Assembly (NCBI GenBank): GCA_021736255.1 | Contig: JAIPGG010000004.1 | Span: forward strand, 3,747 to 67,746 | Origin: Spirochaetales bacterium | GTDB lineage: Bacteria; Spirochaetota; Spirochaetia; JAIPGG01 | Length of the DNA: 64,000 bases | Direction of reading: 5' to 3' | In this document: positions 38,159 to 42,608 of the stretch, in pieces | How positions within the stretch are numbered: position 1 is the stretch's first letter | Layout of the letters: each line of letters starts with the position of its first letter | Translations under genes and position numbers: made by a program | Notes under the pieces: generated by a model | The model's input: the letters and a program-made list of their open reading frames with translations, nothing else | The model's database searches: none | Told to the model about the DNA's origin: nothing

Positions 38159-38926
38159 TCATTCTGCCCCACTCAAGAGCTCTTCAGGGGATGGAGTGCG
38201 CCCGCAGCAAAGGTAATTGGGCAGTCCGCTCCCGCAAGAGCACGGGGCGGTATAGTTTTGATAGTAACAGCCGCTTCTTCGAAGCGATTGAGGGAGCAGA
38301 TCCTGATAGAGCATCGTCGTTGTGGGAAAAATGATGGAATAACTCTGGAAATACTCGAGCTTTTCTATGGTCCCCATCAGTTCCAGCTCATTCGATTCAC
38401 AAATAGTCTGCCAGGCGTCCAGGATGAGCTCCCGGACCATATCTTGCTCTGCAAAAGTCCCGATTTTCCCACTGGGTTTGAGGGCCATGTAACGCTTCAG
38501 TTGAATCGAATAAAAGGCAACCCAGTCATCGAGTTCAGGGGTGCTCTGTCGCACCATTCCGTAATCATTGGTATACTTCTCCAACATCTCGGCGATGAAG
38601 GGAAAGTGATGATACCTTTCTGCGGAAATCCAGCTCCGAACGGCTCTGCCTACGGATCCGAGCTTTTGCAGTGCCAGACCGGTGTAGTACAGGATTCTCG
38701 AGACTTCCCGGGATAAATGTTCAGGACAGGTCCTCGAGGCGGCACGAAAGAGTTCCAGAGCTTCCTCGGTCTTGCCGTCTTCAAGAGCATCAAGCCCCAT
38801 GTCGAGGAAAATACTATGGGTAAAGAATTTTTCCGATCCCTCCATATCTGTAAAATAGCAAGAATACAGATCGCGGGCAACAATAGATTTTTCTTGACCC
38901 CTTTGCAGTTCAAACGTATATTTCAT
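38159..38926 (-). CDS. SEC-C metal-binding-motif protein with TPR-like helical region
   Basis: C-terminal CSCGSGLPNYLCCG (SEC-C motif). The start is ambiguous between 38926 (MKYTFEL) and 38950. Confidence 0.55.
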   Translation of the reverse strand: MKYTFELQRGQEKSIVARDLYSCYFTDMEGSEKFFTHSIFLDMGLDALEDGKTEEALELFRAASRTCPEHLSREVSRILYYTGLALQKLGSVGRAVRSWISAERYHHFPFIAEMLEKYTNDYGMVRQSTPELDDWVAFYSIQLKRYMALKPSGKIGTFAEQDMVRELILDAWQTICESNELELMGTIEKLEYFQSYSIIFPTTTMLYQDLLPQSLRRSGCYYQNYTAPCSCGSGLPNYLCCGRTPSPEELLSGAE

Positions 38927-38982
38927 ATCGAGAAAATACACATACAACAATACTCATTATGAATCATCGTAGGAGGATGAGA

Positions 38983-39246
38983 ATGAAGATCAATCCTATT
39001 GGAGACAGAGTCCTGGTAAAAATGCAGGAAGGAGAAACCAAAACTGCAGGTGGTATTTTCATTCCTGATACCGCCCAGGAAAAGACCCAGATCGGGGAAG
39101 TTATCGCAGTCGGAGATGATGAAGCGGTTACCGTAAAAATCGGTCAAAAGATCATCTATGACAAATATGCCGGTACTTCCATCAAGGTAGACGGTGATGA
39201 ACAGCTCATCCTGAATATGGATGATATACTGGCTGTAGTCGAATAA
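38983..39246 (+). CDS. groES: co-chaperonin GroES
   Basis: MKINPIGDRVLVKMQEGETKTAGGIFIPDTAQEK. AGGAGG lies 7 nt upstream. No groEL follows. Confidence 0.9.
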   Translation: MKINPIGDRVLVKMQEGETKTAGGIFIPDTAQEKTQIGEVIAVGDDEAVTVKIGQKIIYDKYAGTSIKVDGDEQLILNMDDILAVVE

Positions 39247-39288
39247 GCCGGGTATCCAAAGCTTATTTTCCTGTCACACGTTAATCAA

Positions 39289-39332
39289 CGGGAATACTTC
39301 CACAACAAACTGGAGGTGTTTCCGTTTTTTTT
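39289..39332 (+). terminator. Rho-independent terminator after groES
   Basis: Stem CGGGAATACTTCCA / TGGAGGTGTTTCCG (with G-U pairs) followed by T8. Confidence 0.7.
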
Positions 39333-39343
39333 CGTGTTATTCG

Positions 39344-41779
39344 TCATTCGAACAGAAAGTCTTCAATCGCTTCTGATACCTGAGCGGTATTCCCCCCTGC
39401 AGACCGGGTTTCCGGAACGGATTTAAGAAAGAGTTTTCCGTAGCCCTTGGTAGAGAGCCGGGGATCGAGTACTAAAACCACTCCCCGGTCCTCGTTCCCC
39501 CGAATCAGGCGTCCGAACCCCTGCCTAAAGCGCATCACAGCTTCCGGAAGAGAAAGATCCCGGAATCCGCTTTTCCCCTGAGCCTCCAGCCAACTGTAAC
39601 GAGCCCGGGCAACCGGGTGCGAGGGAACACGAAAGGGAAGCCGGGTCAGAACAACTATACTCAGTGATTCACCCGGCGCATCGACTCCCTCCCAAAACGA
39701 ACTCGTAGCAAGGAGCACGCTCGAAATATCGTCATGGAAACTCCTCAAAAGACGGGCGCGGTCCTGCTGTCCCTGACGAAGCACAGTAATTCCCAAGGGT
39801 TCGAGCCGGGTTTTTATACTCTGGTAGACATCGTTGAGGAGTTCATAAGAGGTAAACAGCACAAGGGCTCGCCCCTCCGTCAGTTCCATCATTTCCGGCA
39901 GAACGGTTTTCAGATATTCTCTCCATTCCGGGCTTCCTGTGGCTGGTATGTCCTCCGGCGAAGCAAGCAGGACCCTGTTCTTGTAATCAAAAGGGGACTG
40001 GAGAAGCAGGGTCCGCACCCCTTCGAGACGGTCCAGACCGACCCGTTTAAACCAGAAGGAAAAGGAAGAAGCCACCGTAAGCGTAGCGGAGGTAAAAACA
40101 GCGGCCGAAACCGGCTCATAGAGGGATTCCCGCATCAAGGGTGCAATATCAACAGGTGTCGCCGACCACCGGACCTGCGGACCTCCCTCGCCGAAAGAAA
40201 CCTGTTCGAGCCAGTAGATCGTCTGGTCATCTTCGTACCATCGATTCCAGGCCTCACATACGGAAGACCACTCTTCAACCCGGCGAAGATAAGCCCGGAG
40301 CTCGAGGACCTCCTGCTCCTCTTCGAGGGTAGCAGGACAGGCATCCAGAAGGGATGCAATTCGGTCAGCCGTTTCGATCAGAGAATTCGATAATACACCG
40401 ATAGCCGAAAGAATTTCATCCTGCTTTTCCTGCGGAAGAGCAGGTTCCATAAGCAGGTTCCGTTCACCGGCGAGAAGGTCTATTGTCCGAGCCAGGGCTC
40501 GCTCCGAAGATGTGCGAAGATTTTCAACCGAATCCACCACCCCGGCATATTCTTTTCCGAGTGAGCTCCCGGCCTTCCGAATGAAGCGGGGCAGAACCCC
40601 GCCCTTTCTTCTTTTCCTCTGGTGTATTAAGCGATTGCACAGCCCCTCGACTCCGGCAGGCATGACGGTGCGGGAAAAAAACGATGTAGCGCTCTCTTCG
40701 ATATTATGGGCTTCATCAAAAATGACTCTCCTGAAGGCCGGCAGAACCGCCGCTCCATCGAAATCTCCCCCGCCTAGACGAAGAGAAAGGTCTGCAAACA
40801 GGAGATGGTGATTCGTTACAAGAATTCGTGCTGAGGCAGCCTGCCTTCGTGCGTGGATGAAAAAGCATGTATCCCGATAGGGACAGCGCAGACCCAAGCA
40901 GCTTTCCCGCTCTGAGCGTACAAGGGACCAGATCCTGTCGGATACAGGTACAGGAAGACCGGACCTGCTGCCGTCTTGATCGTTTTCAGCCCACTCTTTC
41001 AGCATCTCTAATTGATCTGATTCATTTTCGAAGAGTTCCGGTTCCAGAAGGATGTCCTTCAACCTCCGGAGACAAAGATAATTCCCCCGGCCCTTTACCA
41101 GAACCGCCTGCAGACCGGAAGCGAGGTGCCTCTGCACAAGGGGAATATCCTTCTCTATGAGCTGCTGTTGGAGATTGATCGTCGCGGTAGAGATCACGAT
41201 CCGTTCATCATTCTTTTCCGCCCATACACAAGCCGGTACCAAGTAAGCCAGAGATTTCCCGACTCCCGTCCCCGCTTCGACTACCGAGAGCTCCTTTTGG
41301 TTGAACGCTTCGGCCACCCGGCGGAGCATCCGAACCTGCTCCTCCCGGGGTTCAAAACCTTCGATCTCTGCGGGGAAACGACCCCCGGCATCTATCAGAG
41401 AAGCAAGCTCATCCGGATTGATGGGAGTTATCGCACCTGCGGGGTGGGCCCGGGCAACAACCGTTACCTCCTCGATGGTATTGTTTACAAGATAAAATCC
41501 TACCCCCTGGTTCCCGATCCTCGAGGCCACCGCAAGGTCGGCCCTGCTCGGTTCGAGAATCCCCGATGGGTGATTATGGATTACCACATCGCCTCGTTCC
41601 ATGTGCGGCTCGAGGGCCGGAACCATGTCTGTTGAACCGCGGGCAGCCTTTTCCACCCCGTTAACCCGGCCCTCTTCATCCAGCCTGCCCACCCAGAGGA
41701 TCTCGTTTCCGTTTTCATCGGAGACGTTCGCTCTCATCTCGAGGAGTACTTCCGATGCAAACCATTTTTCTATCGACAT
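39344..41779 (-). CDS. DinG/XPD-family Fe-S DNA helicase with N-terminal JAB/MPN (RadC-like) domain
   Basis: The N-terminal 115 aa carry an intact JAMM motif, HNHPSGILEPSRAD. Helicase motif I is AGTGVGKSLAY, with a Cys cluster (CLRRL...CLGLRCPYRDTC) and a DEAH box (FDEAHN). Confidence 0.85.
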   Translation of the reverse strand: MSIEKWFASEVLLEMRANVSDENGNEILWVGRLDEEGRVNGVEKAARGSTDMVPALEPHMERGDVVIHNHPSGILEPSRADLAVASRIGNQGVGFYLVNNTIEEVTVVARAHPAGAITPINPDELASLIDAGGRFPAEIEGFEPREEQVRMLRRVAEAFNQKELSVVEAGTGVGKSLAYLVPACVWAEKNDERIVISTATINLQQQLIEKDIPLVQRHLASGLQAVLVKGRGNYLCLRRLKDILLEPELFENESDQLEMLKEWAENDQDGSRSGLPVPVSDRIWSLVRSERESCLGLRCPYRDTCFFIHARRQAASARILVTNHHLLFADLSLRLGGGDFDGAAVLPAFRRVIFDEAHNIEESATSFFSRTVMPAGVEGLCNRLIHQRKRRKGGVLPRFIRKAGSSLGKEYAGVVDSVENLRTSSERALARTIDLLAGERNLLMEPALPQEKQDEILSAIGVLSNSLIETADRIASLLDACPATLEEEQEVLELRAYLRRVEEWSSVCEAWNRWYEDDQTIYWLEQVSFGEGGPQVRWSATPVDIAPLMRESLYEPVSAAVFTSATLTVASSFSFWFKRVGLDRLEGVRTLLLQSPFDYKNRVLLASPEDIPATGSPEWREYLKTVLPEMMELTEGRALVLFTSYELLNDVYQSIKTRLEPLGITVLRQGQQDRARLLRSFHDDISSVLLATSSFWEGVDAPGESLSIVVLTRLPFRVPSHPVARARYSWLEAQGKSGFRDLSLPEAVMRFRQGFGRLIRGNEDRGVVLVLDPRLSTKGYGKLFLKSVPETRSAGGNTAQVSEAIEDFLFE

Positions 41780-41798
41780 CAGTTCTTAGTAATAAAGA

Positions 41799-42608
41799 TC
41801 ACGATCGCCCCAAAGATCCGGCTAGTCCGGTGACTATTCCCGTCATTTCCTGTTTTACACTCTTGCCTGCAGCAACGACCTCTTCATGGTTCAGCGGCTG
41901 ATCACTGATCCCCGCTGCATAGTTTGTAACGGTGGAAATCCCGAGCACTCGCATACCGAGATATGCAGCGACAATGGCCTCTGGAACAGTGGACATCCCG
42001 ACCATATCGGCACCGAGGGTTTTGAGCATCCGGACCTCCGCCGGTGTTTCATAGCTAGGCCCAATCATGGCTGCATAAACGCCCCGCTTCATCTGTTTTC
42101 CTGCAGCCTTATCCGCTTCCTCCATTAAACCAGGATCGTACACGCTGCTCATATCCGGAAACCTCGGACCGAGCTGCTCATCGTTGGGTCCCCAAAGCGG
42201 ATTCGCCCCGAGCATGTTTATATGATCGGAAATGACAACCAGGTCGCCGGGAACAAGATGATCGCCAATTCCACCCGAAGCGTTTGTAAGGATCAGGATC
42301 TCAACCCCCAATCCCTGCAAAAGAAGAACAGGGAGTACGAGATTCGAAAGACTATTTCCCTCATAATAATGGAATCGGCCCCCCATAACAGCAATAGTAT
42401 CGTTGACCTTTAAAACCCCTACATGCCCGACTACGCCGATTTGAGGAAAATCTTCAATTTCTTTATAGGAAATCTTTTCTCCTGTGAAGGCATCAGCGAT
42501 CGAGGCCAGCCCTGAACCGAGGATGATTCCGACCCGGGGACGGGCGGAAGAAACCTTTCTTACCGAAGCCACTGCCTTGTCGCGGCGTTCACGAATATTT
42601 GCGTCCAT
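41799..42608 (-). CDS. purine nucleoside phosphorylase (PNP/MTAP family, PunA-like)
   Basis: RPRVGIILGSGL, VMGGRFHYYEG, and GPSYETPAE...GADMVGMSTVPE. Confidence 0.85.
   Translation of the reverse strand: MDANIRERRDKAVASVRKVSSARPRVGIILGSGLASIADAFTGEKISYKEIEDFPQIGVVGHVGVLKVNDTIAVMGGRFHYYEGNSLSNLVLPVLLLQGLGVEILILTNASGGIGDHLVPGDLVVISDHINMLGANPLWGPNDEQLGPRFPDMSSVYDPGLMEEADKAAGKQMKRGVYAAMIGPSYETPAEVRMLKTLGADMVGMSTVPEAIVAAYLGMRVLGISTVTNYAAGISDQPLNHEEVVAAGKSVKQEMTGIVTGLAGSLGRS

Follow-up and report, generated by a model that had tools for sequence, protein, structure and literature searches.

Fusions of a RadC-type JAB domain to a DinG/RAD3 helicase were reported by Iyer, Zhang, Rogozin and Aravind in 2011, with spirochaetes among the organisms that carry them. 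The JAB-fused helicases were described as close kin of versions fused to a 3'-5' exonuclease, a case of non-homologous domain displacement from which a nuclease role for the JAB domain was tentatively suggested (PMC3239186). A 2025 review named the subgroup "RadC-like DinG", with Desulfuromonas soudanensis as its exemplar, and stated that it is unstudied (PMC11981726). Escherichia coli DinG and YoaA are 5'-3' iron-sulfur (Fe-S) helicases that work at stalled forks or damaged ends (PMC4636137, PMC9826845). Here, we describe a gene for such a protein in a 64,000-nucleotide stretch of DNA (the window; contig JAIPGG010000004.1, positions 3,747 to 67,746) from a metagenome-assembled genome (MAG) of a Spirochaetales bacterium (GCA_021736255.1). 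The original prediction, made from the letters of the sequence alone, was that a JAB domain and a DinG-type helicase are joined in one polypeptide, and this is borne out by profile, structure and conservation. Almost certainly, the product of the gene belongs to the RadC-like DinG subgroup already described in the literature.

The coding sequence is complete and occupies 39344..41779 on the minus strand, the strand of all features of the gene given below. It is a single open reading frame (ORF) of 811 amino acids without interruption, with its stop codon at 39344-39346 (ORF list and translation). Each motif that the original prediction had quoted is found in the translation at the position implied there; the strand had been left unstated. 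Residues 1-112 (41444..41779) form the RadC-type JAB/MPN+ domain, which is recognized by Pfam, by a profile match to the RadC crystal structure 2QLC and by an AlphaFold2 model. Pfam RadC (PF04002) matches residues 16-90 at 25.7 bits against a curated cut-off of 22.1, and a genome-wide scan scores the fused domain at 28.9 bits, again above the cut-off; a failure to match JAB/RadC profiles had been named beforehand as a possible weak point. The JAMM signature is complete, as claimed, with the upstream acidic, catalytic-type residue E26 (41702..41704), H68-x-H70, S78 and D81 all intact; read directly, the motif at residues 68-81 is H68-N-H70-P-S-G-x4-P-S78-x2-D81 (HNHPSGILEPSRAD; 41537..41578). 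Alignment A1, of 24 homologues with 44-48% identity, shows no change at E26, H68, N69, H70, P71, G73, P77, S78 or D81, and in alignment A2 the same residues are invariant across 26 more distant JAB domains of 36-54% identity. A profile search with the domain finds 2QLC (E 1.6e-7) and then, weakly, archaeal AfJAMM. Structure prediction, which had been suggested as a check, gives a JAB model with a predicted local distance difference test score (pLDDT) of 95.3, for which Foldseek returns 2QLC as the best PDB match, followed by Rpn11, BubCD, PfJAMM1 and CSN5. A linker of residues 113-140 (41360..41443), variable in alignment A1 and lying between the Pfam/NCBIfam domain boundaries, connects the JAB domain to the helicase.

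The helicase part is a DinG/YoaA-like superfamily-2 Fe-S helicase core of residues ~141-794 (39398..41359), identified by NCBIfam profiles and the full-length model. Walker A (helicase motif I, AGTGVGKS, residues 169-176; 41252..41275) and the DEAH box (motif II, residues 355-358; 40706..40717) can be read directly, and the Fe-S cluster insertion (40865..41074) contains four cysteines spaced as C236...C294-x4-C299-x5-C305; the whole of Walker A, all four cysteines and DEAH are invariant in alignment A1. Motor domain 2 (Helicase_C_2, PF13307, residues 629-790; 39410..39895) is matched at 152.4 bits, and Pfam DEAD is also matched. NCBIfam YoaA, DinG and ExoDinG profiles cover residues ~128-809 with E values of 1e-169 to 1e-104. 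The best of them is YoaA (residues 128-794) at 565.7 bits, below the equivalog (NF053712) cut-off of 680, followed by ExoDinG PRK08074 at 497.6 bits, whose alignment begins at profile position 248, past the exonuclease, and by E. coli-type DinG PRK11747 at 419.6 bits. The full-length model (pLDDT 85.7; predicted template modeling score, pTM, 0.81) has as its best Foldseek matches 6FWR/6FWS (E. coli DinG) and 9II8 and 8ZEF (S. aureus DinG), then CasDinG and XPD. Hence, profiles and conservation confirm the full DinG-type helicase with Walker A, four-cysteine region and DEAH box that had been proposed. Every sequence determinant of 5'-3' ATP-dependent unwinding with a 4Fe-4S cluster is present, and this activity is expected of the protein.

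A domain-architecture search of the kind that had been recommended shows that the fusion of JAB and DinG is widespread, mainly in spirochaetes. A word-indexed search yields more than 7000 relatives of the full protein, the top matches being 810-830 amino acids long and, where named, from Spirochaetia or Spirochaetales MAGs. The closest sequence found is no more than 56% identical, and full-length homologues span 37-56%. With the JAB domain alone as phmmer query against 1.84 billion representatives (E <= 1e-3), 552 representative clusters are recovered, and in all of the 150 matches listed the domain is at the N-terminus of proteins of ~800-930 amino acids or of shorter fragments. A species-level scan (one genome per species, JAB-only alignment as query) confirms at least 424 genomes, of which the best 80 species loci are the basis of all locus counts for synteny and same-ORF motifs given here. 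These 80 are mostly from Spirochaetota, with Geobacteraceae/Desulfuromonadales, single Acidobacteria/Terriglobia, KSB1 and a few other MAGs making up the rest. Walker A and DEAH lie within the same ORF as the JAB domain in 73 of the 80, and the proteins align end to end with the query at 37-47% identity (~39% for Desulfuromonadales and Geobacter members). A stand-alone version of this JAB subtype was considered and rejected; the short matches inspected (108-153 amino acids) end abruptly or in frameshifted tails and are fragments. Because the subtype is found only on proteins of DinG length or on fragments, and these can be aligned end to end across phyla, it is an obligate and ancient partner of a DinG helicase lineage. 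Two loci have unusually long frames: in a MAG labelled Rickettsiales (L079) the frame reaches far upstream of the JAB domain, to 1084 amino acids, and in L021 it measures 1473 amino acids. Such lengths may result from spurious extension in GC-rich sequence or from read-through with an upstream gene.

The host MAG (2.66 Mb, 81.8% complete) encodes a second RadC, a canonical protein with a helix-hairpin-helix (HhH) domain (225 amino acids, 130 bits, AAHNHPSGSTDPSHED; contig C40, L001:1492..2169, minus strand), which is 40% identical to the fused JAB domain over only 50 residues. Given this separate canonical HhH-RadC in the same genome, the fused JAB domain is a specialized paralogue of RadC. 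Apart from the fusion protein, the MAG yielded no Helicase_C_2 protein and no other DinG-family helicase, and the genome scan gave no match to HolC (PF04364), which would fit the review's description of the subgroup; at the stated completeness, both observations are provisional.

We favor, at a probability of roughly 0.45, the reading that the JAB domain is a nucleic-acid hydrolase delivered by the helicase. Where a fork has stalled or an end is damaged, the helicase core would load onto single-stranded DNA and move along it 5'-3' with ATP, as for E. coli DinG and YoaA, bringing the N-terminal JAB domain to a blocked DNA end. There, with zinc presumably held by H68, H70 and D81 and with E26 as general base, the domain would hydrolyze a bond in nucleic acid and take the part of the nuclease module, which in the sister subgroups, ExoDinG and EndoDinG, is a DnaQ exonuclease or an endonuclease. 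A nuclease is favored because nucleases occupy the same position in these sister subgroups, because the known fusion partners of RadC are all DNA-related, because no ubiquitin-like (Ubl) system lies near the gene and because the JAB domain is minimal in size. Domain replacement at the position of DnaQ, with a nuclease as the outcome, had been put forward in the original prediction; it is a reasonable reading and was already published in 2011. Several points weigh against it. To our knowledge, every characterized active JAB/MPN+ protein is a peptidase or isopeptidase, and none has been demonstrated to cut nucleic acid. The JAMM serine, which in peptidases stabilizes the tetrahedral intermediate, is retained here as S78. 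The incompleteness of the MAG leaves both the sole DinG-family helicase and the missing HolC match provisional. Finally, E. coli radC mutants have normal damage sensitivity, according to Attaiech et al. 2008 as cited in PMC11981726.

The alternative that survives best, which we regard as doubtful, is a helicase-coupled metallopeptidase, in which the JAB domain would cut proteins crosslinked to, or tightly bound on, the DNA strand being translocated. Such an enzyme would be a one-polypeptide analogue of vertebrate FANCJ plus the SPRTN protease. The complete peptidase-type JAMM set with its invariant S78 is consistent with a peptidase, as are the structural neighbors after 2QLC, which are purely isopeptidases. 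There is also precedent for a DinG/XPD-family helicase aiding a DNA-protein-crosslink protease: Yaneva et al. are said to have found in 2023 that FANCJ assists SPRTN. In addition, RadC domains have been found joined to the ArdC module, part of which is a zincin-like metallopeptidase (PMC3239186). However, conserved protein partners, ubiquitin-like, E1/E2 or otherwise, are missing beside the gene, and the JAB domain of ~110 amino acids is minimal and, judged by size alone, without the insertions that hold the ubiquitin or Ubl tail in known isopeptidases. Furthermore, nucleases rather than proteases sit at this position in sister DinG subgroups. A narrower form, in which a DNA-guided metallopeptidase cleaves a covalently trapped protein that the helicase has reached and perhaps unfolded, is unlikely. 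If true, it would make the protein a single-chain bacterial DNA-protein-crosslink repair enzyme and a pointer to the long-sought function of RadC; if the domain is a nuclease instead, it would be the first demonstrated JAB-fold nuclease, as predicted in 2011, and almost as novel.

It is improbable that the JAB domain is non-hydrolytic and instead regulates, or binds DNA or protein, in a zinc-dependent way, for example as a gate on the helicase or as a substitute for the HolC/SSB tether of YoaA. Organisms with RadC-like DinG are without HolC according to the review (PMC11981726), so another recruitment device would be needed, and inactive RadC-JAB versions are fused to DinG in some fusobacteria, for which DNA binding has been suggested (PMC3239186). 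In the proteins analyzed here, however, no substitution was seen in the general-base glutamate, the oxyanion serine or any of the three metal ligands, although the domains come from different phyla and are 36-54% identical, a pattern expected for catalysis and not for mere binding, which makes a non-catalytic role unlikely.

The start codon is slightly uncertain. The public gene call (P0002, 797 amino acids) begins at M15 and not at M1 (region 41737..41779), and no clear Shine-Dalgarno sequence precedes either ATG. The evidence favors the ATG at 41779 (M1) as the better start, because homologues align from residue 1 onward and the first helix of the full-length model covers residues 9-21. The JAB domain is kept within the helicase protein under either start. 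A wrong start or a separate JAB gene had been raised as an objection from the outset, and JAB and helicase are found to share one stop-free frame. An annotation or assembly artefact, in which only the helicase would be made and the JAB segment would be untranslated or belong to a small gene of its own, could draw on the shorter gene call and the lack of a clear Shine-Dalgarno sequence but is effectively refuted by the absence of a stop codon between the two parts, by candidate starts that both lie upstream of the JAB core, by the same continuous ORF in the 73 species loci and in hundreds of representative clusters, and by short matches that are frameshifted or truncated fragments.

Upstream of the helicase gene and on the same strand lies a purine nucleoside phosphorylase (PNP) gene (41799..42608), an ORF whose homologue at the same position in locus L004 has PF01048. 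The adjacency and co-orientation described originally are correct, whereas the distance, given as 20 nucleotides, measures 19 from the PNP stop to the helicase ATG (41780..41798, read directly). Neither an obvious Shine-Dalgarno sequence nor a site resembling a terminator or promoter was found in this gap. Given the short gap, the shared strand and the lack of a terminator, co-transcription with PNP is plausible. In spirochaetes the gene belongs to a block of aspartate kinase, in some cases ASD, PNP, the helicase gene, a converging groES, a TPR-like protein and a sigma-70 factor. PNP is directly upstream in 28 of the 80 loci and groES downstream in 28 of the 80, all of them spirochaetes; outside the phylum PNP is never found there. 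We rejected PNP as a functional partner, as the adjacency is lineage-specific and lies within a larger conserved housekeeping block; the link is one of synteny, possibly an operon, and not of conserved functional coupling. When flanking ORFs were clustered, no cluster occurred in more than 4 of the 27 loci outside the spirochaetes, and no Ubl/E1/E2 system, nuclease or SSB-like gene is a conserved neighbor in these 27. Around the gene there is no mobile-element or defense-island signature. The gene is almost certainly chromosomal, inherited vertically and part of the housekeeping set of Spirochaetota.

On the other side of the helicase gene, groES (Cpn10; 38959..39246, plus strand) is convergent with it and stands alone, without groEL directly downstream, an arrangement shared by 28 of the 80 loci, all spirochaetes. 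The stop codons of groES and the helicase gene are 97 nucleotides apart, and the gap holds a strong terminator-like hairpin of 16 pairs followed by a T-run (39287..39326, plus strand), oriented for groES; for the minus-strand helicase transcript, the same gap has no comparable T-run. Next to groES, a 263-amino-acid protein (38159..38950, minus strand) ends in a cysteine-rich tail (CSCGSGLPNYLCCGR) resembling a SEC-C-type metal-binding motif. Its homologues lie between groES and sigma-70 in 21 of the 80 loci, all spirochaetes, and give a faint TPR match at most.

Both the architecture and the nuclease idea were already known, and this gene is an ordinary, divergent spirochaete member. RadC is among the most widespread JAB domains of bacteria, and the search for its biochemical role has gone on for decades; our literature search returned no relevant experimental work on RadC JAB chemistry since 2018. 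Of the contextual clues that RadC acts on DNA or on substrates bound to it, the fusion to DinG is the strongest. It was already published in 2011, and what the window adds is supporting detail, with no new kind of evidence: the JAB subtype occurs only on DinG-length proteins or fragments, coexists with canonical RadC, has no conserved partner gene and is part of the sole DinG-family helicase found in its genome.

Compared with the JAMM/MPN+ isopeptidases (Rpn11, CSN5, AMSH, PfJAMM1 and CBASS Cap3-like), the fused domain has the same fold and the same E...HxH...S...D zinc-site motif, but it is minimal, is fused to a DNA helicase and has no ubiquitin or Ubl system nearby. Canonical RadC (HhH plus JAB, ~220 amino acids, PDB 2QLC, TIGR00608) shares the HNHPSG...PS..D motif and is the nearest solved structure. 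The HhH domain is missing here, however, and the canonical RadC family models match only region 65-90 of the fused protein, at 21.4 and 24.0 bits against cut-offs of 133.85 and 180 (TIGR00608 / NF000642). ExoDinG of Bacillus and Staphylococcus (PDB 9II8, 8ZEF) likewise has a catalytic accessory domain at the N-terminal position, with a Foldseek template modeling (TM) score of 0.65 to 9II8. The N-terminus has the JAB (deaminase-like) fold here and the RNase-H fold of a DnaQ-like 3'-5' exonuclease there, and matches to the ExoDinG models TIGR01407 / PRK08074 start at profile positions 243-248 with scores below the cut-offs. E. coli YoaA, which acts with HolC/chi in azidothymidine (AZT) tolerance (PMC4636137, PMC9826845), has the best-scoring profile, the four-cysteine Fe-S domain and a helicase core of equal size, and differs in that our protein has the extra N-terminal JAB domain, scores 565.7 bits against the required 680 and comes from a genome in which no HolC gene was detected. 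With the RadC-like DinG subgroup, the N-terminal JAB domain with conserved E, H, H and D and the YoaA-like core (motor domains MD1 and MD2, Arch and four-cysteine Fe-S) are common to both, and the phyla are the same, spirochaetes and deltaproteobacteria being listed. Nothing essential is different here; the gene is a divergent member of the subgroup, set in a spirochaete-specific block of aspartate kinase, ASD, PNP and the helicase gene that converges on groES.

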